From assembly GCA_048367555.1 (NCBI GenBank), contig DBGCAP010000001.1, positions 2,578 to 66,577 of the forward strand: 64,000 nucleotides of DNA, read 5' to 3'. This document shows, piece by piece, positions 13,769 through 43,600 of the stretch. Made by a program: the position numbers and the translations under genes. Source of the DNA: Collinsella sp. (GTDB lineage: Bacteria > Actinomycetota > Coriobacteriia > Coriobacteriales > Coriobacteriaceae). The notes under the pieces were generated by a model. It ran no database searches. It worked only from the letters and a program-made list of their open reading frames with translations, and was not told the DNA's origin. How positions within the stretch are numbered: position 1 is the stretch's first letter; every line of letters starts with the position of its first letter.

Positions 13769-13889
13769 GTGTTTGCTTTCTCTCGCGATTGTCCGCCAAC
13801 TATTATGGCGTAGCGGCGGCGCGGGGTGCCAGCGCGCGAGAAAATGCAGGAAATGGGCGTTCTGCCCAGCCGTTTGGTGCAGTTGCCAG

Positions 13890-14012
13890 CTAAGTGAGTA
13901 GACTTTTTGCAATATCGCGAGCACATGGCTTTTGCGTAAGGGATTTACCTGCGGTTTTAGTTTTCGTTATGTGGGTTGTGCTTGGCTATTGCTAAAAAGT
14001 CTACTCACTTAG
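13890..14012. mobile_element. MITE-like element, copy C (123 bp, more diverged interior)
   Basis: CTAAGTGAGTAGACTTTTTG at 13890-13909 and CTAAAAAGTCTACTCACTTAG at 13992-14012. The interior keeps the ATTTACCTGCGG core. It lies between the trmB stop and the helicase start. Confidence 0.8.
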
Positions 14013-16176: not shown

Positions 16177-16893
16177 ATGAATGTAGAAACTGCGCAGCGG
16201 CTCGCCGACCTTCGCCGCAGCAAAGGCTTTAGCCAAGAAGGGCTGGCACGAAAGCTGGGGCTGTCGCGCCAAGCGGTCAGTAAATGGGAGCGTGCAGAGA
16301 GCTCGCCCGATACCGAGAACCTGATCTCGCTCGCCAAACTCTATGGCGTGAGCCTGGACGAGCTGCTCAATCCGAGCGATGAGATCGAGGACGATATCGA
16401 GTTTGAGAACGAGGACCGCGCCCGTCAGCGCGAGGCCGAGGCGGCAGAGCGCGCGCGTACCCATGAGGCGGCGGCACGTGCCACCGAGGCGGCAACACAG
16501 GCGAGTGATGCTGCGGCCAAGGCGGCGCAAGCGGCAAGCTGGAGTGCACAGGCCGCCAATGCCGCTACGGCGCAGGCGACGAGTGGCGGCGCAGTTGGCT
16601 CGACTCCGGTGAAGGGCCCGTTCCAGTCATTCCCGTATTGGGCCGTGTGCTGGCTGCTGTTCTTTTTGCTGATGTTCCTGTTTGGCGCCGGCCCCTTTGC
16701 CGCGCTGATCTTCTTTACGATTCCCATCTATCACTGGGTTGCGCGTGCGCTCGATGGTGATTGGGCACGCGGGGATATTCAGGTTGGTCCGGCGCCGGCG
16801 GCGGCTAGGGCTCAGAATGCTTCCGCTCCGGTTGATACTGACGTGGCTACCGCGACTACCGCTAACCCGATCGCCAAAGAGGGTGATGAATGA
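16177..16893 (+). CDS. XRE-family HTH regulator fused to an Ala-rich linker and a C-terminal membrane segment
   Basis: LRRSKGFSQEGLARKLGLSRQAVSKWERAESSPDTENLISLAKLYGVSLDELL is a Cro/C1-type HTH. There are two predicted TM helices near the C-terminus. RBS GGAGGA. Confidence 0.8.
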   Translation: MNVETAQRLADLRRSKGFSQEGLARKLGLSRQAVSKWERAESSPDTENLISLAKLYGVSLDELLNPSDEIEDDIEFENEDRARQREAEAAERARTHEAAARATEAATQASDAAAKAAQAASWSAQAANAATAQATSGGAVGSTPVKGPFQSFPYWAVCWLLFFLLMFLFGAGPFAALIFFTIPIYHWVARALDGDWARGDIQVGPAPAAARAQNASAPVDTDVATATTANPIAKEGDE

Positions 16894-17789
16894 TGAAGCT
16901 TTCGCATGAATCCAAGGTACGCTTGGGCGTTGGCATCGGAGCGTTCGTGCTCATCATCGGACTTGTCTTTGGCACTTCGCGGCTATTGGCTCATTCCGAT
17001 ATGGTGCGTACGACCGGTATTCTATCTGGCAATTTGTCTGATTTTGACGATATGTTTGACGACGATGATCTCTTGGATAACGGCAACTATTCCGCTCGGC
17101 CTCAACAGCTTTCGAGCGAAACGTTTGATGCCGACGCGTTCACATCGCTTGACTTGGACGTGACGTCGGGCACGGTCGAGATCAAACACGTCTCCGGCGG
17201 GCCGGTGCGCGTAATTGAAAGCGGGCGTGTGGCAACGGGGACCGTTGCCTTCGATGCGGCAACCCAAAATCTGGCCGAAATCAAGGGCTCTACGCTCAAA
17301 ATTCGCCAGTTCGATTGCGATGACGAGCGCGCCATTGACCGCACGGTTACCGTCGAACTGCCGCGCGAAGTTGCCGATAACATGGTGGGCATTACAGCGA
17401 ATGTAGGATCGGGCGATCTGACGGTCACGGACATTGCGTGCCATGACCTCAACCTGACTTTGGACTCGGGAGACGTTGAGTTTGCGGGCACCGTGACCGA
17501 CACCCTGAATGCCAAGGTCGGTTCGGGCGATGTGACGTTCGAGCTCTACCAGGCCCCCGCGAAGTCGATGGACGTGAGCGTGGGCTCGGGCGATGTGGAG
17601 ATGACGGTTCCGAACTCGACGGGCTTTAAGGCGAGCCTCACCGTGGGCAGCGGTGACTTCGAGAGCGATTTCCTTCCGCTTGGCTACGATGGCGAGACCA
17701 TATTGAATCTTGAATTCGACAACGGTGATAAGTCTGCCACGTATCGTTTTGAGGTTGGTTCGGGTGACATGTCGTTTGATCCGGAGTGA
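16890..17789 (+). CDS. DUF4097-family beta-strand-repeat protein (LiaG-like putative adhesin fold), N-terminally membrane anchored
   Basis: Repeated GSGD(V/L/F/M) strand-turn motifs (VGSGDLTV, DSGDVEF, VGSGDVTF, VGSGDVEM, VGSGDFES, VGSGDMSF). There is a 4-nt ATGA overlap with the upstream XRE gene. Confidence 0.75.
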   Translation: MMKLSHESKVRLGVGIGAFVLIIGLVFGTSRLLAHSDMVRTTGILSGNLSDFDDMFDDDDLLDNGNYSARPQQLSSETFDADAFTSLDLDVTSGTVEIKHVSGGPVRVIESGRVATGTVAFDAATQNLAEIKGSTLKIRQFDCDDERAIDRTVTVELPREVADNMVGITANVGSGDLTVTDIACHDLNLTLDSGDVEFAGTVTDTLNAKVGSGDVTFELYQAPAKSMDVSVGSGDVEMTVPNSTGFKASLTVGSGDFESDFLPLGYDGETILNLEFDNGDKSATYRFEVGSGDMSFDPE

Positions 17790-17834
17790 CATGCGGTTTT
17801 CGGAGATCGGTACATATAGGCATGCTCTTTGATG

Positions 17835-17870
17835 GAGGCGCCGGGGCCGTGGTCGGCTCCGGCGCCTTTG
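17835..17870 (+). terminator. Hairpin terminator after the DUF4097 gene
   Basis: GAGGCGCCGG-(14 nt)-CCGGCGCCTT followed by TG. Confidence 0.45.
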
Positions 17871-17886
17871 CCTTTACAATGGGGGC

Positions 17887-19794
17887 ATGGAACAGATTAT
17901 CTTGAACATACTCGAGGCTCTGCGTCGCGGCGAGACCGTGGACGACAAAGCGCTCGTCAAGCTGATACATGCCGAGGCGCGCCGTGAGGGTGCCGACAAA
18001 CGCGATTTGGCCAAGCGCCGTCTGCTGCCGTTCTACCAGCGGGTTAAACGTGAGGAGCCGGCACGTTGGGCTGGGTGGAATGTCGATTCCGATCTGGAGC
18101 GTCAACTGCTGCAGGTGTTGCGTATGAAGCCTCGTCGCACGGCTTCGGGCGTGGCAACCATTACCGTCATCACCAAGCCGTGGCCGTGCTCGGGCGATTG
18201 CCTGTTTTGCCCCAACGACCTGCGCATGCCCAAAAGCTATTTACATGCCGAGCCGGCGTGTGCCCGTGCAGAGCAAAACTGCTTCGATCCATATCTGCAG
18301 GTGAGCGCCCGTTTGACCGCGCTTTCGCAGATGGGTCATGCGACCGATAAGATCGAGCTCATTGTGCTTGGCGGTACCTGGAGCGACTATCCGCAAGGGT
18401 ATCAGATGTGGTTTATGTCGGAGCTCTTCCGCGCGCTCAATGACGATGCCGTGGCCGGCGTGGCGGCCAACCCCATGTTGGCGCGTCCGGGCATCAGCCG
18501 TGCCGAGGCAGGGCGCCTGCTCGATGACGCTCCCGCCGATGCCCTGCCGCCGGTGGTGGCGGAGCGTCGCGAACGCTATCGGGCCGTCGGTATTGCGACC
18601 GACGAGGCCGAGCTTGCGAGCGGTGTTACCGACGAGCAGGGGCGTGTGGATGCTGCCGTGGGCGGCTATAACCGCGCGGTGCGTCGTCTGTACGGCCCTG
18701 GTACGCCGTGGGGCGAGGTTGCCGAGTGGCAAACGACAACGATGGAAGAGCTCGAGCGCCAGCAGCGCATCAACGAGACGGCGAAGCATCGTGTGGTGGG
18801 GCTCGTTATCGAGACGCGCCCCGATGCCGTAACGCCGCAGGCCCTCACGCTCATCCGCCGCCTGGGCTGCACCAAGATTCAGATGGGTATCCAGAGCCTC
18901 GACCAGCACCTGCTCGATATCAACGAGCGCCGTATTACGGTGGCTCAGATCGAGCAGGCGTTTTCGCTTGCACGATTGTTTGGCTTTAAGATCCATGCGC
19001 ATTTTATGCTTAACCTGCTGGGCGCCACGCCCGAGGGGGACAAGCGCGATTACGAGCGCTTTATGACCGAAGGGGCCTTTATGCCCGACGAGGTCAAGGT
19101 CTACCCGTGTGCGCTCATCGAGGGCTCGCGTCTGGTGGGCTGCTATGAGCGTGGCGAGTGGCGCCCCTATACCGAGGATGAGCTGCTCGATGTGCTGGCC
19201 GACGACATCGTGGTGACGCCGGCGTTCTGCCGTATCAGTCGCATGATCCGCGACTTTAGCTCCGACGACATCATGGTGGGCAACAAGAAGCCCAACCTGC
19301 GTCAGCTCGTTGAGAACCGCCTGGCGGCTCGTGGGGAAGGCGCGACGGTGCGCGAGATCCGCTATCGCGAGATCAGCACGGCGGGTGCCGACCTGGATGA
19401 GCTGACCCTTGACGAGGAGGTGGCGTACGAGACGCCGGTGACGCACGAGCGCTTTTTGCAGTGGGTGACGCCGCGGGGCAAGATCGTGGGCTTTTTGCGC
19501 CTGTCGCTGCCCGATCGTACTTTTGTTGCCGCGCATGCGGACGAGTTGCCGACGACGCCGGACGAGGCGATGATTCGCGAGGTGCACGTGTATGGCATGG
19601 CGGCGCGCGTGGGGGATCAAGGCCAGGCGGCCCAGCACCATGGATTGGGGCGTTTGCTCGTAGAGCATGCATGCGAGATCGCCCGGGATGCGGGCTATGC
19701 GCGCATCAACGTGATTAGCGCGATTGGCACACGCGAGTACTATCGCCATCTTGGATTTTATGACCATGGCCTTTATCTGCAAAAGGAGCTCTAG
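17887..19794 (+). CDS. elp3: Bacterial Elp3 homologue: radical-SAM plus GNAT tRNA U34 carboxymethylation-type enzyme
   Basis: Cys cluster CSGDCLFCP, the radical-SAM barrel region, and a C-terminal GNAT domain (REVHVYG...QHHGLGRLLVEHACEIARDAGYARINVISAIGTREYYRHLGF) typical of the Elp3 family. Confidence 0.85.
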   Translation: MEQIILNILEALRRGETVDDKALVKLIHAEARREGADKRDLAKRRLLPFYQRVKREEPARWAGWNVDSDLERQLLQVLRMKPRRTASGVATITVITKPWPCSGDCLFCPNDLRMPKSYLHAEPACARAEQNCFDPYLQVSARLTALSQMGHATDKIELIVLGGTWSDYPQGYQMWFMSELFRALNDDAVAGVAANPMLARPGISRAEAGRLLDDAPADALPPVVAERRERYRAVGIATDEAELASGVTDEQGRVDAAVGGYNRAVRRLYGPGTPWGEVAEWQTTTMEELERQQRINETAKHRVVGLVIETRPDAVTPQALTLIRRLGCTKIQMGIQSLDQHLLDINERRITVAQIEQAFSLARLFGFKIHAHFMLNLLGATPEGDKRDYERFMTEGAFMPDEVKVYPCALIEGSRLVGCYERGEWRPYTEDELLDVLADDIVVTPAFCRISRMIRDFSSDDIMVGNKKPNLRQLVENRLAARGEGATVREIRYREISTAGADLDELTLDEEVAYETPVTHERFLQWVTPRGKIVGFLRLSLPDRTFVAAHADELPTTPDEAMIREVHVYGMAARVGDQGQAAQHHGLGRLLVEHACEIARDAGYARINVISAIGTREYYRHLGFYDHGLYLQKEL

Positions 19795-20699: not shown

Positions 20700-23144
20700 T
20701 TAGGCGTGGTCGCGCCAGCTGCGGACGCGCTGCTTCATGCCCTCTATGTCGAGCACGCCTTCGGCAAAGCCCTTGCGCACGAGCTCCTCGGGAACGTACT
20801 CGTCGTAGCGATCAAAATAAGGCACCTCGCCGGGATAGACGAGCTCGATGGGATCAAAGTCCTTCTCGGCCTCGGCGGCGAGCACCTCAAAGAACGTCTC
20901 CTCGTCGGCCTTCATCTTGAACTGCATAAAGTATGGACGCGACGAATCGAGCCCGCGAAGGCCAAGCTCCGCGGCGCATTTAATCTTGAGCATGCGCTCG
21001 AGTGCCAAAAAGGCGTAACTGCCCAGCCAGGGGAAGAGCACCCAGGTGTCGCCGCCCAGGTTAATGAGCGGTTTAGTTCCCGCACCCGAAATCTCGGTCG
21101 TATGGCGAGCCTGCGCCAAACGGGCTCGTGCGTTACCCATAAGGTACGGATACGCCGCGTGCTCGTTGAGAGCCTTGCGCATGCGCTCGAGTACGTGTGT
21201 ATTGATGTCACCGGGGCAGTCGCCAAAGTAGGCCGGCACCCGGCCCTTGACCTGCGTGGCAAAGACGGTGTGGCGCTTCCAGTCCACTTCCTCGACAATC
21301 CAGCAGTGTCCGGCGATGGCGATGCGTTCACCGGGCGGTGGCGGGTTGACGATCGTGCCCAATTCGGCCGACTCGCTACGAACGGTGAACTCCTCGTTTT
21401 CCTGGAACACGGCGTAGAACTTAAAGTTGTTGATGATGCGCTCGCCCGCGAGGCCCACGATGAGCCCGCCGCTCTCGGTGACCTGGATGTGGTCGATCTT
21501 AATGAGGTGACGCAGCAGTACGCGATAGTCATCGGCCGAGATGCGATGGAAATAGCTGAGTGTGAGCACGCGCTGGGCAAGTTCTGCCGGCGTGAGCTCG
21601 CCGGTGCTGGCAAGCGTCGACATAGTCTGGTGGTAGAGCAGGCTGTAGGGGAGTCGATCGAGCTCGGGCGGCTCGACCCACTTTTCCTCGCGATAGAGTT
21701 GTACGAGCGCGATGCCCTGCAGGAGCTTCCACGGAATGGTCTCGGGCATCATCGTGCGCGGCTCGGGCTCTTCCTCGCGCATGACAAACCACATCTCGGG
21801 CGGAAGATCGCGGCGTCCCGTGCGGCCCATTCGCTGCAAAAAGGAGCTGACGGTAAACGGCGCGTCGATCTGGAAGGCACGCTCCAAGCGACCGATATCG
21901 ATACCGAGCTCCAGCGTAGAGGTGGTGACGGTCGTTTGTGCCTGTTCCTCGTCGCGCATGAGCTCTTCTGCCGTCTCGCGCAGCGATGCCGAAAGATTGC
22001 CGTGGTGGATGAGAAAGCGGTCGGGCTCGTGCCGGTTTTCACAGTAGCTGCGCAGCATGGAGCATACGGCCTCTGCCTCTTCGCGCGAGTTAGCAAAGAC
22101 CAGGCACTTGCGGCCGCGCGTGTGCTCAAAGATATAGCCCATGCCGGGGTCGGCGTTGTCGGGCGCCGTGTCGGTGGGGTTGAGAAGCGCCTGCTCGGTC
22201 GCTCGTGGGATGTCGACTTCGCCCTCGGGGGCCGAGGAAGTTTGGCGGTCCTTGGGAGCGGGCTTTTCCCGTGCCCGCTCACGACGTTGACGGCGCTCCT
22301 CTTGTGTGAGCTGTCCGCTGTGACGCATGTCTTGGGCGCCGGCGGGCAGTGCCACGGATGCCGCCGCCTCGATACGCTCGCACGCAAGCACTTCGGCCTC
22401 TTGAGGACCCGTGCTCTCGAATCCCCGCTGCTGTGCCTGGGGACCCGAGTTGTAGAAGTGCTCCATAGAGATGCGCCACACGCGGCGCGGTTCTTCAAAG
22501 CGGGGGATAACACAGTCGCGCCCCGTTCCCTGTGAGAGAAAAGCGCCCGTGCGCTCGGGGTCGCCGATGGTGGCAGAAAGGCCGATGCGTCGAGGCTGCA
22601 CGCCGGCCATGCGCGAGAGCCGCTCGATAAGGCAGAGCGTCTGCCCGCCACGGTCGCCGCGCATGAGCGAATGGACCTCGTCGATGACCACGTAGCGCAG
22701 GTCGCAAAACATGCGCGGGATCGCCATGTGCTTATGGATTAAGAGCGCTTCGAGTGACTCGGGCGTAATCTGCAAGATGCCGCTCGGTTTTTTGATGAGC
22801 TTAGCCTTGTGAGACTGCGAGACATCGCCATGCCAGTGCCAGACAGGGATATCGGCCTCTTCGCAGAGGTCGTTGAGACGGACGAACTGATCATTGATGA
22901 GCGCCTTGAGGGGGCCGATGTAGAGGGCGCCCACGCTTGCGGGCGGGTTCTCCCAAAACTCGGTCAGGATGGGAAAGAAGGCTGCCTCGGTTTTGCCGGA
23001 AGCCGTGGATGCCGTCAGGAGCACATTATCTTGCGTGTTAAAGATGGCGTCTGCCGCTGCAACCTGGATAGAGCGCAGACTCTCCCAATCGTGGGAGTAG
23101 ATGAAGTCTTGGATAAACGGAGCATATCTGTCAAAGGCGTTCAC
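20700..23144 (-). CDS. sngC: Lhr/BrxHI-like SF2 DEAD/DEAH helicase; third gene of a Shango-type cassette (SngC-like)
   Basis: Motif I TASTASGKTEAA, motif II VVIDEVHS, GLSATIG, motif VI QRMGRTGRR, and a long C-terminal Lhr-type DEAD-associated region. The start is reassigned to GTG 23142-23144, preceded by GAGAGGAGG. The track's longer ORF overlaps the upstream gene. Confidence 0.85.
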   Translation of the reverse strand: MNAFDRYAPFIQDFIYSHDWESLRSIQVAAADAIFNTQDNVLLTASTASGKTEAAFFPILTEFWENPPASVGALYIGPLKALINDQFVRLNDLCEEADIPVWHWHGDVSQSHKAKLIKKPSGILQITPESLEALLIHKHMAIPRMFCDLRYVVIDEVHSLMRGDRGGQTLCLIERLSRMAGVQPRRIGLSATIGDPERTGAFLSQGTGRDCVIPRFEEPRRVWRISMEHFYNSGPQAQQRGFESTGPQEAEVLACERIEAAASVALPAGAQDMRHSGQLTQEERRQRRERAREKPAPKDRQTSSAPEGEVDIPRATEQALLNPTDTAPDNADPGMGYIFEHTRGRKCLVFANSREEAEAVCSMLRSYCENRHEPDRFLIHHGNLSASLRETAEELMRDEEQAQTTVTTSTLELGIDIGRLERAFQIDAPFTVSSFLQRMGRTGRRDLPPEMWFVMREEEPEPRTMMPETIPWKLLQGIALVQLYREEKWVEPPELDRLPYSLLYHQTMSTLASTGELTPAELAQRVLTLSYFHRISADDYRVLLRHLIKIDHIQVTESGGLIVGLAGERIINNFKFYAVFQENEEFTVRSESAELGTIVNPPPPGERIAIAGHCWIVEEVDWKRHTVFATQVKGRVPAYFGDCPGDINTHVLERMRKALNEHAAYPYLMGNARARLAQARHTTEISGAGTKPLINLGGDTWVLFPWLGSYAFLALERMLKIKCAAELGLRGLDSSRPYFMQFKMKADEETFFEVLAAEAEKDFDPIELVYPGEVPYFDRYDEYVPEELVRKGFAEGVLDIEGMKQRVRSWRDHA

Positions 23145-23226
23145 GGGGCCTCCTCTCAAAAACGAATCTCTCAACGCGGCTGGCAACGGCTTGCTGCATT
23201 GCTGCTTCAACGTTTGCCCAGATAAA

Positions 23227-23260
23227 ACCTGCCAAAATAAACCTGACCTTTTTGGCAGGT
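23227..23260 (-). terminator. Terminator-like hairpin starting at the stop codon of the ATPase gene, inside the cassette
   Basis: The minus strand reads ACCTGCCAAAA-aggtcaggttta-TTTTGGCAGGT followed by TTTATC. It lies in the 115-nt gap between sngB and sngC. Confidence 0.5.
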
Positions 23261-24564
23261 TAGATGGTGAACTCGGCGAAGTTGCGGTCGTCGCCTGCGG
23301 TGCCGGCGTCGTCTGTTGCGGCTGTCGGCGCCAGCGCGTCGCCACCGACGCTTTGCAGCAACTCGGCCACGTTAGCATCGGGGTTTTGACACAGGATATC
23401 GAGCAGTTCGATAAAGTCGCGGATGACTTCGCGGGGCGTCAGATGCGTGTCGGCCCCCACGCGGCCAAACTCAATTTTGAGGAAGTTCACCAAGTCGTTC
23501 TCGGTAAGCGTGGGCGTCCAGCCAAAGTAGCCGGCGTGAATTTGCATGAGTTTTTCGATCAGCACCAGCAACTCCTCATAGGTGAGTGGCTGCAGGCGGA
23601 TGATGGGCGCGAGCATGTCCTTAAGGTCCTCGCGCGCAAAGCGGCCCTGAGCGAGTCGGCTGCGCAGGGCCTCGTAGGAGAACACGCCTCGGCGGCGGTC
23701 TTCGATGGAGGTTGGCGTGCCGCCCATGATCATGCCCAGGTACTGCGCCTTGCCCTGGAGCGTGTCGTTGTACATGGTCAGGATTTTCTCGTAGTTGTAT
23801 TGGCGTGTGATGGCGTTGGGAATCTTATACAGATTCACGAGCTCGTCGATGAGCACCAGCATGCCCTTGTAGCCGCTGCAGACCAAAAAGCGCGCAATGA
23901 GCTTAACGTAATCGTACCAGTCGTCATCGCTGATGATGGTCGAGGAGCCCAGCTCGGCGCGTGCCTCACTCTTGGTGCGGTACTCGCCACGAATCCATTT
24001 GGTCACGCGGCCCATGGCTTCTTCGTCGCCCTCGGATACGGCCGCGCGGTAGCGGCGGAGCATACGGGCGAAGTCGAAGCCGTGGACCATTTCCTCGAGC
24101 GGGGCCAGTTGGGCATTGACGGCAGACTCATCGGCATCGGCACACGAGGCGACCCAGCGATCCAGGATAAGGTTGAGCGCACCGCCCTCGGGGCGCGTTT
24201 TAGTCGATATGTTGCGGATGAGCTCACGGTAGGTGGCAAGGCCCTGTCCCTGGCCGCCCTGCAGGCGGCGCTCAGGGGATAGGTCGGCATCGGCGACGAC
24301 GAATCCTTCACCCATGGCGTGCGTGCGGATGGTCTGGAGCAAAAAGCTCTTGCCGGCTCCGTAGCGACCGACCAGAAAGCGGAAGCTCGCGCCGCCGTCG
24401 GCGATGAGACTCAGGTCGGTGAGCAGGGCGCGGATCTCGACCTCGCGCCCTACGGTGATGTAGGGAAGGCCGATGCGCGGGACCACGCCGCCCTTGAGCG
24501 AGTTGAGAATGACGGCGGCGACGCGCTTGGGCACACGGGGTGCTGCGGATGTGGTATCACTCAT
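23260..24564 (-). CDS. sngB: DUF2791 / BrxD-like P-loop ATPase; second gene of the Shango-type cassette (SngB-like)
   Basis: Walker A GRYGAGKSF, Walker B LVLIDEL, and the N-terminal block LKGGVVPRIGLPYITVGREVE that is characteristic of the DUF2791/BREX BrxD family. Confidence 0.8.
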   Translation of the reverse strand: MSDTTSAAPRVPKRVAAVILNSLKGGVVPRIGLPYITVGREVEIRALLTDLSLIADGGASFRFLVGRYGAGKSFLLQTIRTHAMGEGFVVADADLSPERRLQGGQGQGLATYRELIRNISTKTRPEGGALNLILDRWVASCADADESAVNAQLAPLEEMVHGFDFARMLRRYRAAVSEGDEEAMGRVTKWIRGEYRTKSEARAELGSSTIISDDDWYDYVKLIARFLVCSGYKGMLVLIDELVNLYKIPNAITRQYNYEKILTMYNDTLQGKAQYLGMIMGGTPTSIEDRRRGVFSYEALRSRLAQGRFAREDLKDMLAPIIRLQPLTYEELLVLIEKLMQIHAGYFGWTPTLTENDLVNFLKIEFGRVGADTHLTPREVIRDFIELLDILCQNPDANVAELLQSVGGDALAPTAATDDAGTAGDDRNFAEFTI

Positions 24565-26317
24565 GGTCTAGGTATCCTCTCACGTCTGCTTCGTAGTCCT
24601 CGATAATGTGCGGTCCTGCCGCGCCAAATTCAATTACGGTGTCACCCACCAGGTCAAAGAGCGCCTCGTTGATGGTATCGACGAGCATGTCCTCGCTCTG
24701 GTCCGAGTGCGCCACTGCCGATGTCGCTTGCGCTGCGTTTTGCTCGAGCAGTGCGCGCAGATACGCGGTTGCGGCAGGCGCGAGTTTGTTCGCAGCTTCG
24801 GCAGACGCGGGCGTTACGGGTGCGGGCGCAGACACGAGGAGCGGTGCCACGACGCCGAAGTCTTCGGTGGAGACAGTCGGCTCGTCGGGTTCGTCTTGCC
24901 GTACGGTCATCTCGCCAGGTTCGGCAGTCATGCCGGGCGCAGGCTCGGTGTTCGGTTGCTCGATAAGCGTCGCCTCGGCTTCCACAGGCACATCGTCCTC
25001 GCGCTCCTCATCAATCAAAAGCGCCTCACGCGTTTGTGCGGCGGCACTCCGGATATGCCCCAGCTGGCTCAAATCGATATCGATCTTGACGGGCTGGTGT
25101 GCGGCATCCCACGAAAGCCATGCCACGATCTCGTCATCGATGATCTTGGCCAGATATTTGGGGACCTTCTCCTCCTTCAGGGGGTGGGCGGGGTCTAGGG
25201 CCAGGCGCAGGCGTTGGTCGCAGGCGCGCATCATCTCACCGAGCTTGCTACTTTTTTGTCTGCTGCCGTGGATACGCATGCATTCCCAAAAGCCATTTTG
25301 GCAGCGGTAAATATGGATGGGGTCCAGACGGTATTCGCAGTCCTCGTGGCGATTAGGCGCAAAGAACACAGCCGAGGCAAACATGGTATAGGGCATGGCC
25401 GTCTCCTCCCCAAACAAGCTCGCCACGATACCGGTCTTTCGGTGCGTGTCATAGTAGCGCGCCATACGGACATACACGGCACATACCACGTGGCGCAGAT
25501 CGCGGTGGTGGCTGCGGTCGAGCCGCGAGTTACTTAGGTTGTACGTGGAGAGGGCGTTGATGGCGGCCATGAGTCGCTCCTCGCGCGCCTCGTCGGGCGG
25601 AAGGGGGAGCGTGGGCTCGGAGGTTTTGCGACGCTTGGGGGCTTGGGCCGACGGTGCCGGTGCAGGCGAGAGGTCTCGCGCTGCGCGGCGCAGCTCGATG
25701 AGGGCGTTGTCGAATGCGACGGTTTTAGAGTCGCGAAGCAGCTCGGGGTTGAGCCCGTGGAAAACGGCGTAATCTTGCAACCACACGCGTGCAAACCGGT
25801 CGATGCCGGGCTCGAAGGCACGATAGGCATCCCAAAAGGCCTTGATCTTGTTAAAGCCATCGAGCGGGTCATCAACGCCAATGCTGCAGATCAGCTCATA
25901 GAGGTACAGGAAGGCAAAGGACGTAGACGTTTCCTCGACGGTTCCGCGGCGCACTTGGGCGCGCCAGGTAAAGTACCCGCGCAGCTGGCGATCGCTCATA
26001 GCGTTGTAGGTTGGGAAGTACGACTTGAACGTACCGTTATAGGGGCAATCGTCCTCAAAATCGGCCATCAGCAGGCCTTGGCGGTAGAAAAGCTCGGCTT
26101 CCGAAAGCCAACGGCCCGCGCCGCCCTTTGGGTCTTCTTGCCAACGCGATATCTCACGCATCTTGCGGTATTGGTCGGGGAGGAAGTTCTGCATCTGTCG
26201 GCCGGTCTTGAGAATCGGCTCGTCTGCGTAGACCTCATGTGAGAAACGGGCAGACTGATGGGTCCGGGCCTCGGCCATAATGCGCTCGATGAGCATCTTG
26301 ATGTCCTGGTCGGCCAC
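24557..26317 (-). CDS. sngA: TerB-N / TerB-C domain protein; first gene of the Shango-type cassette (SngA-like)
   Basis: TerB_N-like block (MSDRQLRGYFTWRAQVRRG...FAFLYLYELI) and TerB_C-like C-terminus (EDMLVDTINEALFDLVGDTVIE...IIEDYEADVRGYL). It overlaps the sngB start by 8 nt. Confidence 0.8.
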   Translation of the reverse strand: MADQDIKMLIERIMAEARTHQSARFSHEVYADEPILKTGRQMQNFLPDQYRKMREISRWQEDPKGGAGRWLSEAELFYRQGLLMADFEDDCPYNGTFKSYFPTYNAMSDRQLRGYFTWRAQVRRGTVEETSTSFAFLYLYELICSIGVDDPLDGFNKIKAFWDAYRAFEPGIDRFARVWLQDYAVFHGLNPELLRDSKTVAFDNALIELRRAARDLSPAPAPSAQAPKRRKTSEPTLPLPPDEAREERLMAAINALSTYNLSNSRLDRSHHRDLRHVVCAVYVRMARYYDTHRKTGIVASLFGEETAMPYTMFASAVFFAPNRHEDCEYRLDPIHIYRCQNGFWECMRIHGSRQKSSKLGEMMRACDQRLRLALDPAHPLKEEKVPKYLAKIIDDEIVAWLSWDAAHQPVKIDIDLSQLGHIRSAAAQTREALLIDEEREDDVPVEAEATLIEQPNTEPAPGMTAEPGEMTVRQDEPDEPTVSTEDFGVVAPLLVSAPAPVTPASAEAANKLAPAATAYLRALLEQNAAQATSAVAHSDQSEDMLVDTINEALFDLVGDTVIEFGAAGPHIIEDYEADVRGYLDHE

Positions 26318-26388
26318 CGTCTCTCCTCTCCTAACGCAGCGTCGGTGACCTCATATCATAGCACAGCATCAAACAGGTGTTCGAGATA

Positions 26389-27351
26389 TCATCCGCGGAT
26401 AGATTTTTGGGACATGCCTAGAAATCTACTTTTAGGCAGGCAGTCTTTTGAGCGCTGGCGAAGGGTAGATTTGGGAGACGTGAGGCTAGAGCAACTTTGG
26501 AACATGTAGTTCGCGTGCGTGACCTTCGAGGTGTCCCAGCCCGTCAGATCAAGCGAGGTGAGATCGAAGCAACCATTGAACATCCTCAGCATGTTCGTTG
26601 TCCTCGAGGTGTCCAGGTTGGCGAAATCGACCGTGGTGAGACCCCAGCAGCCGTTGAGCCAGGACTCCGTTGTCTTTGGGCGGATTCCCTCATCGACTGC
26701 TGTGACGCTCTTGAGGCTGCGGGCGCCAGCAAAGAGCTTCTTCATGTCCTCGATGCCCGTGGTGACCCTGGTGACCGTGCGGCCGTCGAAGGTATCGCCA
26801 ACGGAGAGGGCCTTGAACCTCTTGTAGAGGCCCGCAGTGTTATCCGAATACCACACGGCGAAGGCCTGCTTCTGCCCGAAGGAGAAGTCGACCGTGCCGA
26901 GCGCGAACGCGCCTCTGGTCGCAGCCTTGAGCGCGTTTGCGTTGTTCTTGGCGCCGAGCTTGCCAACGGACCAGTCCACGGAGGCTGTCTTTCCCGGGGC
27001 GAGGGTTTCGTCGGTCTTGGACAGGGTTGTGGAGCCGTTCTTGTAGGAGAGCCACGCGGACTTGTTGCCGCCCGCCACCGAGGAGCTGGCGGATAGGCTG
27101 ATCGCCTCGTCGTTATTCTGGGACACGGAGACGTCGCCCAGGGAGGCCTCCTTCGAGCCCACGTTCCCAATCTTCCATTCGCTCGGAGTGATGACCGTGC
27201 CGTTGTGCTTTACGAAGCAGGGGACGGTCATAGGCACGGAGACGTTGATCTGAGCTTCGTTCGCGAATGCGAAGGAGGGCGCGGCGGTGAGCGCCACCGC
27301 GAGTGAAAGGGCGCCAAGGAGGGCGCCGAGGAGTCTACCTCTTGTCCCCAT
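26389..27351 (-). CDS. Secreted BspA-type leucine-rich-repeat (DUF285-like) surface protein, apparently C-terminally truncated
   Basis: Signal peptide (LSLAVALTAAPSFAFA), then repeats of the DUF285 type (LNGCWGLTTVDFANLDTSRTTNMLRMFNGCFDLTSLDLTGWDTSKVTHANYMFQSCSSLTS). The last ~27 aa are off-pattern and run into the palindromic repeat at 26398-26436. There is no anchor domain. RBS GGGAGGA. Confidence 0.65.
   Translation of the reverse strand: MGTRGRLLGALLGALSLAVALTAAPSFAFANEAQINVSVPMTVPCFVKHNGTVITPSEWKIGNVGSKEASLGDVSVSQNNDEAISLSASSSVAGGNKSAWLSYKNGSTTLSKTDETLAPGKTASVDWSVGKLGAKNNANALKAATRGAFALGTVDFSFGQKQAFAVWYSDNTAGLYKRFKALSVGDTFDGRTVTRVTTGIEDMKKLFAGARSLKSVTAVDEGIRPKTTESWLNGCWGLTTVDFANLDTSRTTNMLRMFNGCFDLTSLDLTGWDTSKVTHANYMFQSCSSLTSPKSTLRQRSKDCLPKSRFLGMSQKSIRG
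26398..26436. repeat. Short palindromic element resembling joined MITE ends
   Basis: ATAGATTTTTGGGAC-atg-CCTAGAAATCTACTTTTAGG. The arms TAGATTTTTGGG and CCTAGAAATCTA match 10/12. Compare the MITE ends GTAGACTTTTTGG and CCAAAAAGTCTAC. Confidence 0.4.
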
Positions 27352-27848
27352 CGGTATCCTCCCTCTTCGTGCGTGAAGTTATGTCCAGTCCCACCGCGCA
27401 CGCGGCAGCATCGGCCATCAGGAACAGGACCCACACGGATGGGTCGCCTGTCTGTAATACGGCAAATAACTCAAGTGTTATTCCACTGTTTTCAAGGGAA
27501 GTACACCCATTACTGTATCCATTAACAAACGGTTATTCGCAGATGTCCGATGTCAAATGCACTGAACGGGAAAGATTGGGCTTGGCCGCATCGGCTCCAT
27601 TTCTGGGCCATGCGTCCATCGCTGACAGCGGATAATGGGCCGTTGGGCGATACGAACAGGACGCTTGTTCCCGGTACCATCTATCATGATACATATAATC
27701 GCAAAGCTATCGAAAACGGCGCCACCGCGACTGCCGTCGGACACATGCCGCAGCGACCTCGACATCAACCGTCGGTACTTATGGCTGCACCAAGGCGCGC
27801 CAAACGCCGGTTTCAATCCTTTGCGAGCCCCGGGACGAGAGGAACATC

Positions 27849-29582
27849 ATGAGCAAGATACGGAAACTGATAGGTCTTGCCTCAGCGCTCGCCTTTGTCA
27901 TGGCGATGCTGCCGGCGTTGGCATTTGCCGAGACAACGCAGTACAACCTGTTTGTCAACGGCGAACAATTTGCCAGCGACAACCTCACTATCGCATGCGG
28001 CGAGGGAACGGCGACGTACGACCCCGACGCGCAAACCCTTACGCTAAACAACGCGTCTATCACAAACGTACTCGGCTATGGCGGTATCAATTCGGAACTG
28101 ACGGGCGATTTGGATATCGTGCTTCAGGGTGAGAACCGTATTACCTTCGATGACAATATGGGCATTATGGCTACGGGGAATATCGAGTTCTCGGGGTCTG
28201 GCAGCCTTACTATCAATGTTGCGGGGGAGACGAGGGACGGCATAAGTGCTGCCGGCAGTGTTTCGGTACGTGGAACGACCCTTATCATTAATGCCCCGGG
28301 CGGCATTGGCATTGCCAGCGACGGTTCGGTTATTGTCGATAACGCGAAGCTCACGTCGCATGCGCTATATGCGGGCGTCGACGCTGTCAATCTCACTATC
28401 AAAAACAGCAGCGTGGTTGACATTTCGGCGACGGAAAACAACTGCAACGCCGCGTACATTAGCTCCCGCGGCGGCCCTACGGGCGGTAACCTGAGCATCT
28501 CGAATTCTAACGTCGTGGCGAAAAGCCTCTTCCCCGGTCTGTTCGCCGAAGGAAACCTGACGATTGACGGCGGCTCTGCCCAATCGACCTCTACCGCCGA
28601 TGCCGCTCTGTGGACAAGCGGCGATCTGACCATCAAGGGCGGCGCAAAGGTCACGCTTGCCGGCGTATATCCGGCTGGCTGTGCTGGCGATTTTACAGTC
28701 TGCGCGGCTGAGGTCGATGCCAAGAACACAAGCGTGGATAATATCCCCGCGCTCTCGGATAACCCCGTCATTTACGGTGATTTCGACCTGACGCATGCCG
28801 TCGCTGTCGATAGCGAAGGCACGGCCATCGATCTCATCGAGCACGATGGCGTCGAGCAGGCCAAGGGCTTCCTGCGCCTCTATAAGAATATCCATTTCAT
28901 CACGGGCGAGAAATCCGTCACCTATAGCTTCCCCTTCACGAAGGTCGTTAAGAATGGCGGCGACATCGCTCCGGGCAAGCAGGAATTTGAGCTTGAGATT
29001 TTCAACGTCGGCGTCGGCCAGATTGAGGATTACACCGACGTGACCGTGACGGCGACCGTCGCCACCAACGGAGCGGGGGAATACGAGGGGCTCCTCACCA
29101 TTAAGGGTCCCAAGAGCCAGGTTCGCGACATCACCTGTGAGGGCTTCTGTGTGCGCGAGAAGAATACAGGTGTGGCAAACTGGACGTATTCCGATGCTGT
29201 CTACCAGATTTTCTGCCATGAGTACACGATTACGGATGGCGCCCGGTCGGCCACCCAGTCGAGTTACGAAATCTTCCCCGTCAAGCTGGTGGAAACCGAT
29301 AACGGCGCATTCTACGAGAAGACTCAGGACACGCCCGTGACGAGCATGACGTTCGAGAACGTCTATACGGAAAATACGGCACCCGCCGAGGGCGATAAAC
29401 CTGATCCTAACAAAAAGCCTGCTGACACCACGAAGCCTGCCGGAAAGAAAAAGACCACTGCGGGCAAGATTCCCAGCACGGGCGACAGCAACACTTCGAC
29501 TATGGAGTGTGCCGTGCTGCTGACAATCGCAGGCGCGCTGGTTGTTGGGCTTTCGATGAAGAGGCTGCGCTGCGGACGCTAG
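27849..29582 (+). CDS. LPXTG-type cell-wall-anchored adhesin (beta-helix-like repeat region plus a pilin-like isopeptide-type domain)
   Basis: Signal peptide (ASALAFVMAMLPALAFA). C-terminal sorting signal IPSTG plus a hydrophobic stretch plus KRLRCGR. A Pro/Lys-rich wall-spanning linker. RBS GAGAGGAA. Confidence 0.85.
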   Translation: MSKIRKLIGLASALAFVMAMLPALAFAETTQYNLFVNGEQFASDNLTIACGEGTATYDPDAQTLTLNNASITNVLGYGGINSELTGDLDIVLQGENRITFDDNMGIMATGNIEFSGSGSLTINVAGETRDGISAAGSVSVRGTTLIINAPGGIGIASDGSVIVDNAKLTSHALYAGVDAVNLTIKNSSVVDISATENNCNAAYISSRGGPTGGNLSISNSNVVAKSLFPGLFAEGNLTIDGGSAQSTSTADAALWTSGDLTIKGGAKVTLAGVYPAGCAGDFTVCAAEVDAKNTSVDNIPALSDNPVIYGDFDLTHAVAVDSEGTAIDLIEHDGVEQAKGFLRLYKNIHFITGEKSVTYSFPFTKVVKNGGDIAPGKQEFELEIFNVGVGQIEDYTDVTVTATVATNGAGEYEGLLTIKGPKSQVRDITCEGFCVREKNTGVANWTYSDAVYQIFCHEYTITDGARSATQSSYEIFPVKLVETDNGAFYEKTQDTPVTSMTFENVYTENTAPAEGDKPDPNKKPADTTKPAGKKKTTAGKIPSTGDSNTSTMECAVLLTIAGALVVGLSMKRLRCGR

Positions 29583-29638
29583 GGAAGGGCCTTTTAAAGG
29601 CTAGCCGCCCACTCTGTGCATGATTGCCTAGGGGCAAA

Positions 29639-29675
29639 GAGGCCCGCTCAACGTGTCTGACGTTGAGCGGGCCTC
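29639..29675 (+). terminator. Strong hairpin downstream of the adhesin gene
   Basis: GAGGCCCGCTCAACG-tgtctga-CGTTGAGCGGGCCTC is a perfect 15-bp stem. There is no clear U-tract. Confidence 0.5.
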
Positions 29676-29820
29676 AACGGTTAATAATGCCCGTGGTATT
29701 TGGTGCGCATTGCGCGCAGACCCCCTCGCTTCTCGCACCGCTTTCCCTCCCGGGATGGTAAAGTTGTTGACCACACAGGAATGCAGGAGCGGAAAGAGAA
29801 CGATTGCATTGGCTTAAAAG

Positions 29821-30040
29821 GTGACATTCAAGCAGATTGCCAACGAGGTGGGTCTTTCGCCCTCTTCTGTTTCCGTTGTGCTTAATGACCGGTCCTGCCG
29901 CATCTCGAAAGCAAACCGTCGCTGCATTAAAGAAGTTGCGGCGCGAGCATTACGTGCCTAACCAGATTGCCTGCAGCTCGGTGATGCGCGAGTCAAAGAC
30001 GCTCGGTCTTATTGTCCCCAACATCGAGAACCTTTTAAGG
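29821..30040 (+). pseudogene. LacI-family regulator remnant (HTH domain only, frameshifted and truncated)
   Basis: Frame 1 from 29821 reads VTFKQIANEVGLSPSSVSVVLNDRSCRISKANRRCIKEVAA, then hits a stop at 29959. The homology continues in frame 2 (REHYVPNQIACSSVMRESKTLGLIVPNIEN) and ends at the TIR-like motif at 30034. No sugar-binding core is present. Confidence 0.65.
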
Positions 30041-30053
30041 CGTGTCCCAAAAA
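30034..30053. repeat. Solo MITE-end-like motif GTCCCAAAAATCTACTGAGG
   Basis: It resembles the right MITE end TTCCAAAAAGTCTACTCACTT. It lies exactly where the LacI remnant stops, 13 nt from the DUF554 gene stop. Confidence 0.35.
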
Positions 30054-30065
30054 TCTACTGAGGGG

Positions 30066-30794
30066 CTAGAACAGGAGGGCGTAGATGATGGCTATGACAA
30101 CGGAGGGGAGCATATTGGCCGTGCGGAAGGTCTGAGGGCGGATGAGATTTACGCCGACGCAGAAGATGAGCATAGAGCCCACGAGCGACAGGCTGTCGAG
30201 GGCGGCGGCGGTCATGATGGGAGAGAGTGCGCCGGCAAACAGCGTGATCGTTCCCTGGAACACGGCGACGGGCAGGGCCGAGAAGATACAACCGCGGCCA
30301 AGTGAGGCCGTCATGGTGCAGACGATGATGCAATCCAGCGCGCCCTTGAGAGCGAGCGTGGACCAGTCACCGAGCAGACCGTCTTGGATTGATCCCACGA
30401 TAGCCATGGCGCCGATGCAGACGGTCAGCGATGCCGAGACAAAGGCATTGGTGAACTCGTTGTCCCCCTCGCTGCCGGTTTTGCGTTTGAGCCATTCGCC
30501 CAGGTTTTCGATGCCGGCTTCCAAGTTTATGGCCTCGCCGATGAGCGAGCCAAGGGCAAACGATACGATGAGCATGGTGGTGCCGGTGGTGGCCAACGTT
30601 TTCCCGTCAATGACGAGCATCTTTTGCATGGTGCCGCCCAGGCCGATAAACAGAACGCACAGCCCCGATGCCTTCATGAGCGTATCTTGGATGCGGGGCG
30701 TGATAAAGCGTCCGCCTATCAGACCCAGCAAGCCGCCCGCAACCAAAAGTGCGACGTTGATGATCGTTCCCAAACCCGGCATGAACCCTCCCAT
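30066..30794 (-). CDS. DUF554-family integral membrane protein
   Basis: MPGLGTIINVALLVAGGLLGL... is the characteristic DUF554 N-terminus, and the protein is multi-TM throughout. The start is at 30794 or 30782. Confidence 0.8.
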   Translation of the reverse strand: MGGFMPGLGTIINVALLVAGGLLGLIGGRFITPRIQDTLMKASGLCVLFIGLGGTMQKMLVIDGKTLATTGTTMLIVSFALGSLIGEAINLEAGIENLGEWLKRKTGSEGDNEFTNAFVSASLTVCIGAMAIVGSIQDGLLGDWSTLALKGALDCIIVCTMTASLGRGCIFSALPVAVFQGTITLFAGALSPIMTAAALDSLSLVGSMLIFCVGVNLIRPQTFRTANMLPSVVIAIIYALLF

Positions 30795-30900: not shown

Positions 30901-32313
30901 TCAGCCTCCCATCACGACATAGGGGCTGTAATCGAAGCACAGCGTCATGAGTCGCTGCGGGGACTCAATGGCCGCAGCGATGATATCGGCATCTCGAGCT
31001 CGGTCAAATCCCTCGAGCTCAATTTGATACGAGACGTCTTCCATTTTATGGAGTATCCGGTTATTCAGGAGGCTTTTACCGTCGAATTCCTCGGTTTTGT
31101 CTCCGTCCGAGGTTACGGCATACAGGTGCAGTTTTGCGGTGGTCGCAGGGTCGACGACCGTGAGGTTGTCGATTTGGTTGGCCGTGCCCTTTGCCCCAAG
31201 TAGGGTGAGCAGGGTAGGGGCTACGACCTCGCCCGATGGTAGAAAAACAACTTCGACGGTTTTAGGGAATGCGATAATGGCTGCTTTGCGGACGGGCTTA
31301 TCGGCGGCGGCGACCTCAATGCTCGCGGCGTCGACGGTTCCCGCGCGGTCGAGCGCGACCATCATGCAACAATTGCCCTCGTCGATGTCTGCCGGCATGG
31401 GATACCCCAAGTTTTCGCCAGCTTGTGTGCCGCCCACTGCGGCGGTTGTTTCGCTTGGCTCGCTGAAAGTGGCTGAAGGACCGCTCGATGGCGGTGTTAT
31501 GTCGCCTGGTGCGCCATTGTCCCCAGGCGTTATTTCACCGCGGTTCTCGCTGGAGTTGCTTGCGATGTCAGCTGTCGAGGGGGCGAGTCCGACCGCTCCC
31601 GCTCCGCTCCATTCCATCTCGAGGAGCGCCGGATCGACAAGGACGTGATGCACATCTTGCGTTTGGGTACTGATATCGACAGGACCGGGATCTGTCCCTC
31701 GCGTTAGGCTGAGCGATCCGGTCCGCTGTTTGCCCCGAATCTCCTGGCTTTCTGTGCCGCTCGCGTAGAACATCAGAGGAATCTCGCCATTTGCTGTGGC
31801 GTCGGTGCCCGCCTTGGTCATTTTCAGCGATGCGGTGAATGAGATAGCGGGCTGCGTGCCATCGGCGCTCGAGGGGACGCAGCCCAGGCATACACCTCCT
31901 CCGTCTTCGAAAAACGTGCTGTCGAAGGCGACTGTTGCCCCGTCCGCCGAGTCATCGGACAGGGTGATGTCGAGGCACAGCTCCACGTCGCAGGAATCGC
32001 CATCGGCATCAGTTGCAGCTGCGCGCCATGTGCAGATAACGCATCCCGTTAGGGGGCCGTCCGCTGTGCTCGAGCGCTCGGTATCCACGACTATCGAGCT
32101 GTTTGCGCGGCGACGGAGGCACCCCGAGGTCGAAATGCTTGCCCGCGCAAGCGAGAAGCGTTGGCGCGCGATGGCGCTCGTCTGGTTTGTGGCGAGACAG
32201 TTGACGGCAGGTAAGGGGACGTCCACGGCGGGTGTCGCTAGAGCGGCGACGGGCATGCCGGTGGCAAGCGCACTGCAGAGCGCGGCAACGGGCAAAAGGT
32301 TCTTTGATGCCAT
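30901..32313 (-). CDS. Secreted hypothetical protein (470 aa, Cys-rich N-terminal third); last gene of the five-gene surface operon
   Basis: Signal peptide MASKNLLPVAALCSALATGMPVAALA and RBS AAGGAGAA. I recognise no domain. Confidence 0.6.
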   Translation of the reverse strand: MASKNLLPVAALCSALATGMPVAALATPAVDVPLPAVNCLATNQTSAIARQRFSLARASISTSGCLRRRANSSIVVDTERSSTADGPLTGCVICTWRAAATDADGDSCDVELCLDITLSDDSADGATVAFDSTFFEDGGGVCLGCVPSSADGTQPAISFTASLKMTKAGTDATANGEIPLMFYASGTESQEIRGKQRTGSLSLTRGTDPGPVDISTQTQDVHHVLVDPALLEMEWSGAGAVGLAPSTADIASNSSENRGEITPGDNGAPGDITPPSSGPSATFSEPSETTAAVGGTQAGENLGYPMPADIDEGNCCMMVALDRAGTVDAASIEVAAADKPVRKAAIIAFPKTVEVVFLPSGEVVAPTLLTLLGAKGTANQIDNLTVVDPATTAKLHLYAVTSDGDKTEEFDGKSLLNNRILHKMEDVSYQIELEGFDRARDADIIAAAIESPQRLMTLCFDYSPYVVMGG

Positions 32314-42602: not shown

Positions 42603-43538
42603 CTAGGCTTTTTTGGGTTTGTTGACGATGATGATACCGCCGCAGACCAACAGCAGGGCAACGATGACGGTAACGGGGCTCGTGCCGGCGCCCTCGCCGA
42701 GCAGCAGCGCGCTCAGCAGCACGCCAAAGACCGGGTTCATAAAGCCAAAGACCGAAACGCGGCTGACGGGGTTGACGGCGAGCAGACGGGACCACAGCGA
42801 GTACGCGACGGCGGAAATGAGTGCCATATAAATGATGAGCGCGATGGCGGGGACGATTTCGGTGGGGGACAACGTGCCGCCCATCAAAAACCCGATGGCG
42901 GTAAGGACCACGCCACCGACTAAAAACTGCCAGCCGGCGAGCAAGACGCCGTCATGCTCGCGCGAGAAGATGCCAATGAGACAGGTCGACAGAGCGCCCG
43001 CAACGGTGGAAGCCAAGATAAAACCCTCGCCGTCGAGTGTAAAGCCAAAGGTGCCATCCGCGCCCGAAAGGTTGACGAGCGCGACGCCGGCAAAGCCCAG
43101 CACACAGCCAAGCACCTTGGCCGTATTGAGCTTTTCGGTGCGAAACGCCAGAGCGGCAAAGAGGATAGCCAAGAAGTTGGCGCTGGCCTCGATGATGGAG
43201 CTTGACATAGCGCTTGCACGGGAGAGACCAAGGTAGAAAAAGAAGTACTGGCCAATGGTCTGGAAGAGCGACAAGATACAGATGGGCTTGATATCACGGG
43301 CTTGCGGAACGAGCGGTCGGCGCTGGGCCACGCTCATGCCAACAATGACCAGCATGCCGGCAAGGGTGAAGCGCAGACCCGCGAAGAGCAGCTGCGAGGC
43401 GCTGTCGTGCGCGGGAATGCCAAAGAGGCCGTAGCCGATCTTGATGCAGGGGAAGGCGGAGCCCCAGAGCGCGCAGCAAACGAGGCAGCCCAGGATGAGT
43501 CCGGGCAGGGTGGCGAGATACGGCTTGCGGCTTTCCAT
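42603..43538 (-). CDS. DMT-superfamily (EamA-like) transporter
   Basis: Ten-TM pattern with duplicated EamA halves. Start ATG 43536-43538 with RBS GGAAGGA. Confidence 0.85.
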   Translation of the reverse strand: MESRKPYLATLPGLILGCLVCCALWGSAFPCIKIGYGLFGIPAHDSASQLLFAGLRFTLAGMLVIVGMSVAQRRPLVPQARDIKPICILSLFQTIGQYFFFYLGLSRASAMSSSIIEASANFLAILFAALAFRTEKLNTAKVLGCVLGFAGVALVNLSGADGTFGFTLDGEGFILASTVAGALSTCLIGIFSREHDGVLLAGWQFLVGGVVLTAIGFLMGGTLSPTEIVPAIALIIYMALISAVAYSLWSRLLAVNPVSRVSVFGFMNPVFGVLLSALLLGEGAGTSPVTVIVALLLVCGGIIIVNKPKKA

Positions 43539-43562
43539 GATGTCCTTCCTACATGCGCGAAG

Positions 43563-43600
43563 CAAAAAAGAACCCGCCACCGGATGCGTCGGTGGCGGGT
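43563..43600 (-). terminator. Rho-independent terminator of purL
   Basis: The minus strand reads ACCCGCCACCG-acgcatc-CGGTGGCGGGT followed by TCTTTTTTGC. Confidence 0.75.

Follow-up and report, generated by a model that had tools for sequence, protein, structure and literature searches.

The 64,000-nucleotide stretch of Collinsella sp. DNA analyzed here (GenBank assembly GCA_048367555.1, contig DBGCAP010000001.1, positions 2,578 to 66,577 of the forward strand; hereafter the window) contains three adjacent genes, sngA, sngB, and sngC, that match the anti-phage system Shango. The locus is a further copy of this system with no new architecture, and standard defense-finding tools would call it; we consider it very probable that the cassette is an intact member of the Shango family that looks expressed and is under selection. 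It is also a fixed, vertically inherited, and strongly constrained chromosomal locus and not a mobile islet. Such a deep, core-like, vertically inherited Shango in a dominant human-gut genus was mildly unexpected, and it raises the question of whether the triad serves defense, genome maintenance, or both. Action in phage defense within Collinsella is, in our judgment, probable.

Millman et al. (2022) described Shango, an anti-phage system of E. coli with a TerB domain. In P. aeruginosa PA14, where a TerB-like protein and an ATPase accompany a DEAD/DEAH helicase, the system lowers plating efficiency 10- to 100-fold (Johnson et al. 2023). The P. aeruginosa system sits in a conserved core hotspot, and SngC belongs, along with BrxHI, DruE, and DpdJ, to a clade of defense-associated superfamily 2 (SF2) helicases. 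The prediction by Anantharaman et al. (2012) is cited here as it is quoted in other papers. A preliminary description of the window had stated that Shango was shown to be anti-phage by Millman et al. (2022) and that its mechanism is still unknown. The literature agrees on both counts; the mechanism was still given as unknown in 2025 (preprint) and 2026 (review), and our literature search turned up no mechanistic paper on Shango.

Cassette genes and family assignment

Open reading frames (ORFs) for all three genes were found where the preliminary description had placed a co-directional minus-strand triad. The genes are adjacent on one strand in the order A-B-C. Their coordinates, and those of the motifs and candidate regulatory elements discussed below, are as follows.

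24557-26317, minus strand: sngA, 586 amino acids, GTG start, ribosome-binding site GGAGAGGAGAG upstream
23260-24564, minus strand: sngB, 434 amino acids, ATG start
20700-23144, minus strand: sngC, 814 amino acids (815 codons including the stop), GTG start at 23144
24557-24564, minus strand: overlap of the sngA stop and sngB start, exactly 8 nt, read as translational coupling
24343-24369, minus strand: SngB Walker A motif GRYGAGKSF, intact
23842-23859, minus strand: SngB Walker B motif LVLIDE, intact
22983-23006, minus strand: SngC motif I, TASGKTEA, intact in the alignment of copies
22668-22685, minus strand: SngC motif II, IDEVHS, intact
22563-22580, minus strand: SngC motif III, LSATIG, intact
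21810-21836, minus strand: SngC motif VI, QRMGRTGRR, intact
23226-23261, minus strand: hairpin AACCTGCCAAAA...TTTTGGCAGGTT, then TTAT, in the sngB-sngC spacer and overlapping the sngB stop
26355-26363, minus strand: candidate extended -10 element TGcTATGAT, upstream of sngA, read from sequence

The overlap of sngA and sngB has exactly the 8 nt first described, and an identical overlap is present in 2 relatives with 52-56% SngA identity (L083 and L085). The sngC frame is open over 20700-23378; its true start was placed at GTG 23144 because GAGAGGAGG precedes this codon, ATG stands there in several relatives, and position 2 of the SngC model aligns with residue 2. An alignment of 71 loci backs this start. 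The helicase had been described as 815 amino acids long, a figure that counts the stop codon; its length is 814, and its nature as an SF2 helicase stood. All motifs quoted in the preliminary description were present, and across 66-71 related copies per protein they vary little or not at all. In SngA these are LRGYFTWRAQVRRG, FLYLYEL, and MLVDTINEALFDLVGDTVIE, and the Walker A and B motifs of SngB were kept in 69 copies.

Comparison with Pfam assigned TerB_N (E = 1.2e-32) and TerB_C (6.2e-16) to SngA, BrxC_BrxD (PF10923, formerly DUF2791; 6.4e-150) to SngB, and DEAD (1.4e-26) and Helicase_C (3.9e-18) to SngC, bearing out the TerB_N/TerB_C protein and the DUF2791/BrxD-type ATPase of the preliminary description. 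Each protein was also searched with the PADLOC hidden Markov models. SngA matched the SngA model at 3.5e-77 (residues 29-581, model positions 53-525 of 528), and this was its sole PADLOC match. SngB matched the SngB model at 4.2e-170 (565 bits), with BrxD as the runner-up (1.4e-39, 135 bits), and SngC matched the SngC model at 7.1e-277 (919 bits; model positions 2-716 of 720), with BrxHI as the runner-up (3.9e-123, 410 bits). The best full-length PADLOC match of each protein is therefore its own Sng model, and the triad, already proposed to be of Shango type, is a Shango cassette with its genes in the canonical order. The PADLOC and DefenseFinder rule for Shango requires all three core genes.

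The runner-up matches, and the name of the Pfam family of SngB, are also what one would expect if the cassette were a remnant or variant of BREX with a BrxD-type ATPase and a BrxHI helicase. NCBIfam contains no Shango models, and SngB has a secondary match to NCBIfam BrxD. That match, however, scores 135 bits against a cut-off of 350, and in PADLOC the Sng models are far ahead of the BREX models for both SngB (565 vs 135 bits) and SngC (919 vs 410 bits). SngB and BrxD share PF10923. SngC matches BrxHI over its C-terminal half (3.9e-123), and both helicases fall in one defense-helicase clade; the region common to SngC and BrxHI spans residues 460-814. In contrast to BREX, the Collinsella cassette includes a TerB_N/TerB_C partner, and a gene for such a protein coupled to an ATPase is the Shango signature. 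Pfam scans of about 30 further window ORFs found no PglX methyltransferase, PglZ phosphatase, BrxA, BrxB, BrxC, or BrxL. With these core genes not found among the scanned ORFs, the BREX explanation is effectively refuted and we regard it as extremely improbable.

The domain names TerB_N and TerB_C, together with partial matches of SngC to models of Lhr and of the ligase-associated DEXH helicase, could instead suggest a tellurite-resistance (Ter) stress operon or a strict Lhr- or ligase-associated repair operon. However, neither SngA nor any of 60 diverse relatives gave a match to TerB proper (PF05099), and no TerC, TerD, TerE, or TerZ was found among the scanned neighbors. SngC scored 195 bits against the NCBIfam model TIGR04121 (cut-off 850), 166 against PRK13767 (849), and 85 against the Lhr model PRK09751 (1496). 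The preliminary description had also given the helicase a long DEAD-associated C-terminal region. This part did not stand: DEAD_assoc (PF08494) was detected neither in the whole protein at E < 0.01 nor in a C-terminal fragment at E < 10, and the 354-residue C-terminal part gave a marginal, colinear match to WH_Lhr (E = 0.09). The closest solved structures to SngC were Lhr of M. smegmatis (5v9x and 7lhl; 2e-25 for 5v9x) and YprA/MrfA of B. subtilis (6znp; 6e-23). SngC shares with Lhr and YprA an SF2 core with DExH motifs and a marginal Lhr winged-helix signal, yet it falls far under the equivalog cut-offs, and it is encoded with SngA and SngB and neither alone nor with a ligase or phosphoesterase partner. 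An operon of the Ter or Lhr kind is hardly credible here.

Bunzi (BnzA) and Dionysus (DinB) have in common with SngA a TerB-superfamily label and an association with defense. In those systems, TerB-type proteins occur with membrane or pore-forming partners; the partners of SngA are instead an ATPase and a helicase, and SngA carries TerB_N and TerB_C only. Pfam and PADLOC searches recognized no nuclease, protease, NADase, or pore-forming or membrane effector domain in SngA, SngB, or SngC.

The Collinsella cassette was compared with Shango of E. coli and PA14 by means of the PADLOC models and published domain descriptions. Gene order is the same: a TerB_N/TerB_C protein, an ATPase, and a DEAD/DEAH helicase. 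The host differs, being a Gram-positive gut actinobacterium, and the cassette lies at a fixed housekeeping site and not in a variable island or hotspot. Collinsella SngC is approximately 95 residues longer than the Shango model because a low-complexity insert (about residues 215-335) separates its RecA lobes. Finally, the Collinsella sngB-sngC spacer is 115 nt long and contains a conserved hairpin.

This hairpin has a 12-bp stem by RNA folding and a T-rich tail. It was kept in 71 of 71 Collinsella loci, and the remainder of the spacer was variable. More distant relatives do not have it; there, sngB and sngC lie 8-12 nt or 515 nt apart. A consensus terminator scan missed the hairpin because its loop exceeds 8 nt. 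Judged by its sequence, it is terminator- or attenuator-like and may attenuate sngC transcription. Upstream of sngA, TGcTATGAT is identical in 3 related loci that do not have the adjoining insertion described below. The consensus promoter scan did not call this -10 candidate, which we infer to be a possible promoter element of sngA.

Chromosomal context, conservation, and selection

For comparison, 80 loci were retrieved via the flanking Elp3-like gene, each from a different species-level Collinsella genome, with Elp3 identities of 96-100%. The nearest was that of uncultured Collinsella sp. UMGS427 (L002, UQMK01000010.1). The cassette was complete in 65 loci and cut by a contig end in 9; the other 6 loci ended before reaching it. 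All 74 informative loci carry it in one position, always in the gene order Elp3, spermidine-synthase-like ORF, sngC, sngB, sngA, DUF554, and there were no empty sites among the 80 loci. Neither in-frame stops nor pseudogenes were seen in 66 sngA, 69 sngB, and 71 sngC copies.

The preliminary description had taken the host for a high-GC Gram-positive anaerobe, which is correct (Collinsella is an anaerobic actinobacterium with 60% GC), and had placed the cassette in a defense islet beside decayed genes and repeat remnants. This setting was not borne out. The genes adjoining the cassette show no decay, and the GC content (0.610 vs 0.601) and tetranucleotide usage of the cassette are native. No tRNA, tmRNA, or Rfam element was found anywhere in the window, and no integrase was found among the window ORFs scanned by Pfam. 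Ten neighboring ORFs searched against PADLOC gave generic helicase-core and helix-turn-helix matches only and no defense system, so a defense-island setting was rejected. The remaining window is housekeeping in character, with PurL, homoserine dehydrogenase, a lactate-type flavin adenine dinucleotide (FAD) oxidase with electron-transfer flavoprotein (ETF), AzlCD, KdgT, an iron-containing alcohol dehydrogenase, and an aldehyde dehydrogenase. Carriage by mobile elements was likewise rejected: relatives of SngA amounted to 3 distant matches, on megaplasmids, in 72,556 plasmid records and to none in 50,697 phage records. Universal syntenic conservation, which by the preliminary description would count against its own proposal, was found at least at the level of the genus. 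With it the context argument for a dedicated mobile defense role falls; homology to Shango is not thereby refuted.

The DUF554 gene was considered as a possible fourth Shango gene, being adjacent to the cassette and co-directional with it in 64 Collinsella loci and in the more distant loci L087 and L089. This candidate was rejected, as the gap to the cassette is 3.66 kb in the window and 8 kb in L085, and the gene is missing in another lineage.

The association extends beyond Collinsella. The SngA family comprised 2503 clusters at 50% identity (E ≤ 1e-3). Collinsella SngA alleles form one such cluster, and their next relatives are 54-59% identical; a direct search for SngA homologs gave 4212 matches, Collinsella alleles at at least 94% identity, with no distant relatives among them. 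The contigs of the relatives keep the order A-B-C. At 56% SngA identity, L087 mirrors the neighborhood of the window, with AzlCD, ETF, FAD oxidase, DUF554, sngABC, the radical-SAM Elp3-like gene, and methyltransferases. At 52%, L083 retains KdgT, AzlDC, ETF, FAD oxidase, and sngABC; compared with the window, its SngC is 83% and its SngB 81% identical, most flanking enzymes are lower (64-84%), and SngA is at 52%. At 42%, in L089, DUF554 still adjoins sngA. In a second lineage, represented by L090, L091, and L093 (36-37% SngA identity), sngABC again lies between housekeeping genes, with MatE and a Sel1-repeat protein upstream and threonine dehydratase, RidA, and MnmA downstream. This same context is shared by two SngA clusters that the 50%-identity library keeps apart. 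Synteny held to 42-56% SngA identity, together with the near-absence from plasmids and phages, indicates an old chromosomal resident and not a recent islet.

All three genes are under purifying selection comparable to that on their neighbors. The ratio of nonsynonymous to synonymous divergence (dN/dS) was 0.036 for SngC, 0.040 for SngB, and 0.124 for SngA, compared to 0.054-0.091 for the flanks (Elp3 0.054, DUF554 0.060); dS was 0.31-0.34 in the cassette and 0.26-0.27 in the flanks. The excess variability of SngA lies in two disordered linkers with insertions and deletions, at residues 211-270 and 445-530. Ratios in its folded domains were 0.00-0.10, rising to 0.25 where the C-terminal module begins. 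Positive selection on SngA was rejected, since the highest windowed dN/dS was 0.8, in a disordered, indel-rich linker, and no window exceeded 1. Across hundreds of natural alleles, SngB and SngC are almost frozen, and SngA varies mainly in the two linkers.

Over 22 kb, the window and the UMGS427 locus are approximately 100% identical. The exception is a tract of approximately 3 kb (23250-26250) that takes in the 3' end of sngB and all of sngA and drops to 71% identity in one bin of 250 bp. This tract looks like an allele replacement through recombination. Pairwise distances of adjacent genes were weakly correlated across the whole region (r = 0.03-0.46); the divergent tract is therefore not read as special, recombination appears general in the region and in the genus, and sngA as a particular recombination hotspot was unsupported. 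A smaller dip in identity to UMGS427 was seen at 17500-18000.

Conservation of this kind would also be expected if the Coriobacteriia triad were domesticated or primarily a housekeeping system for DNA maintenance (repair, stalled forks, R-loops), with the anti-phage activity of distant homologs being a side effect or a separate specialization. The fixed site in every informative Collinsella locus, the synteny that persists at 42-56% SngA identity, and the housekeeping neighbors of the second lineage all agree with such a role, as do the dN/dS of 0.04 for SngB and SngC, the native composition, and a neighborhood without defense genes. In L083, SngB and SngC (81-83%) exceed most flanking metabolic genes (64-84%) in conservation. 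The nearest solved helicases are Lhr and MrfA/YprA, which are DNA-repair enzymes. However, transfer of homologous three-gene systems confers protection against phages. Some defense systems are core within a clade, and the P. aeruginosa Shango occupies a conserved core hotspot. SngA, moreover, evolves much faster than its partners (52% vs 81-83% in L083), as might be expected if it had to keep up with a changing target, and no ligase, nuclease, or LexA-type regulation was found among the scanned neighbors. On balance, we find a primarily housekeeping role distinctly unlikely and favor phage defense.

SngA structure and possible mechanism

An AlphaFold2 (AF2) model of SngA was built from 61 diverse sequences, with a predicted local distance difference test (pLDDT) score of 86 and a predicted template modeling (pTM) score of 0.69. 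SngA divides into five parts.

Residues ~40-216: TerB_N helical domain (Pfam and AF2)
Residues 217-242: variable linker
Residues 243-436: alpha/beta middle domain
Residues 437-508: acidic disordered linker
Residues 509-586: acidic, compact, winged-helix-like C-terminal module (H-H-H-beta-beta-H)

Invariant residues of TerB_N are Y104, Y115, W118, R119, E141, W179, and D182, and those conserved in the middle domain are F302, G303, C339, G342, and W344. The model contains no transmembrane segments, and a Foldseek search of the full model against the PDB and viral models found no significant relative. In isolation, the C-terminal module had a pLDDT of 92 and matched mainly winged-helix DNA-binding domains (LysR, ModE, MarR) at template modeling scores of 0.46-0.56. 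We call the fold winged-helix-like, and make no claim of DNA binding, because these Foldseek matches were not significant. The net charge of the module is -12 in every one of the 61 family members, which argues against its binding DNA, and the linker that precedes it is negative in 97%. The charge makes DNA mimicry, autoinhibition, or the binding of a protein or metal the favored roles of the acidic tail. The conserved acidic C-terminal tail and the lack of a nuclease-like effector narrow the mechanistic hypotheses.

One mechanism can be proposed on this basis, tentatively and with low confidence in its details, which as a whole are inferred. SngA and SngB would be made in matched amounts and would form a sensor/loader complex. 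An infection cue could be recognized by the TerB_N domain of SngA, which is conserved and rich in Tyr, Trp, and Arg, together with the middle domain. The conserved acidic tether and C-terminal module of SngA might act as a DNA-mimicking or autoinhibitory plug that keeps DNA-binding partners off DNA. Upon activation, the SngB ATPase would release SngC or load (license) it. SngC, by homology to Lhr and MrfA/YprA, would be a 3'-to-5' single-stranded DNA translocase, and it may strip or unwind intermediates of phage replication or recombination but leave them undegraded. Stripping without degradation would fit the modest 10- to 100-fold protection reported for Shango of E. coli and Pseudomonas.

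Several points weigh against this explanation of the cassette. Phage protection has been shown solely for the E. coli and P. aeruginosa homologs. Deep, core-like conservation among housekeeping genes is atypical for defense systems, so a cellular role is possible. Sequence and profile searches found no solved relatives of SngA or SngB, apart from one spurious designed repeat protein, and the winged-helix similarity of the C-terminal module is not significant (Foldseek E 0.25-1). Both the interaction of SngA with SngB and the autoinhibition are putative.

A wider proposal would be that Shango is an ancient, vertically inherited core module and not a mobile accessory, both in Coriobacteriia and in one further lineage of anaerobes or more, and that it has stayed at a single chromosomal site while SngA diverged to about 42-56% identity. 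It would then be either hard-wired innate immunity or primarily genome maintenance with anti-phage activity as a by-product, and the acidic tether and winged-helix tail found across the SngA family would be a DNA-mimic autoinhibitor. As a whole, this proposal appears to us rather unlikely.

Other features of the window

The features listed here lie next to the cassette, on the sngA side, or elsewhere in the window.

26407-30066: insertion of 3.66 kb between sngA and DUF554, bounded by 19- to 25-nt inverted repeats TAGATTTTTGGGACAYGCC
26389-27351, minus strand: DUF285/PARCEL-type surface-protein gene with a signal peptide, apparently intact
27849-29582, plus strand: Cthe_2159-type surface-protein gene with an LPXTG-like IPSTG anchor, apparently intact
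43638-47384, minus strand: purL (phosphoribosylformylglycinamidine synthase), the real gene opposite a 1366-residue ORF

The inverted repeats of the insertion lie at 26400-26424 and 30033-30057 and occur nowhere else in the window. The insertion has a GC content of 0.57. UMGS427 is the sole one of the 80 related loci to share it with the window; in the remaining 64 whose sequence extends to DUF554, a spacer of 91-93 bp stands at this place. It is the sole presence/absence polymorphism on the sngA side of the cassette and could be a mobile or invertible cassette. On the other side, between the spermidine-synthase-like gene and sngC, two related species, L012 (12782-14821) and L067, carry a 2-kb insertion with an ORF of approximately 410 residues that resembles a membrane protein, and about 9 loci have smaller insertions of 70-160 bp at this junction.

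The longest ORF of the window (43302-47402, plus strand; 1366 residues, rich in Gly, Ala, Leu, Val, and Asp, no Pfam match) was rejected as an antisense artifact of purL. A DUF2130 protein (9250-11007, plus strand) adjoins a 945-residue DEAD/DUF3516 helicase (11087-13924, minus strand), which gave core-domain matches only to the HamB and PDC-M23B defense models. The assumed N-terminal extension of this helicase has stops in 13 relatives, so its true start is probably further downstream. An ORF of 1110 residues (60247-63579, plus strand) combines RecJ-type DHH, DHHA1, and RecJ_OB domains with a DEAD/Helicase_C core. Either an exonuclease is fused to a helicase here, or the ORF call merged two genes. 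Two neighbors vary between Collinsella species far beyond the genes around them: a 470-residue ORF with no family match (30901-32313, minus strand) is 56-93% identical, with a bimodal distribution, and a DUF4097 "toastrack" protein (16890-17789, plus strand) ranges from 64 to 99% identity.

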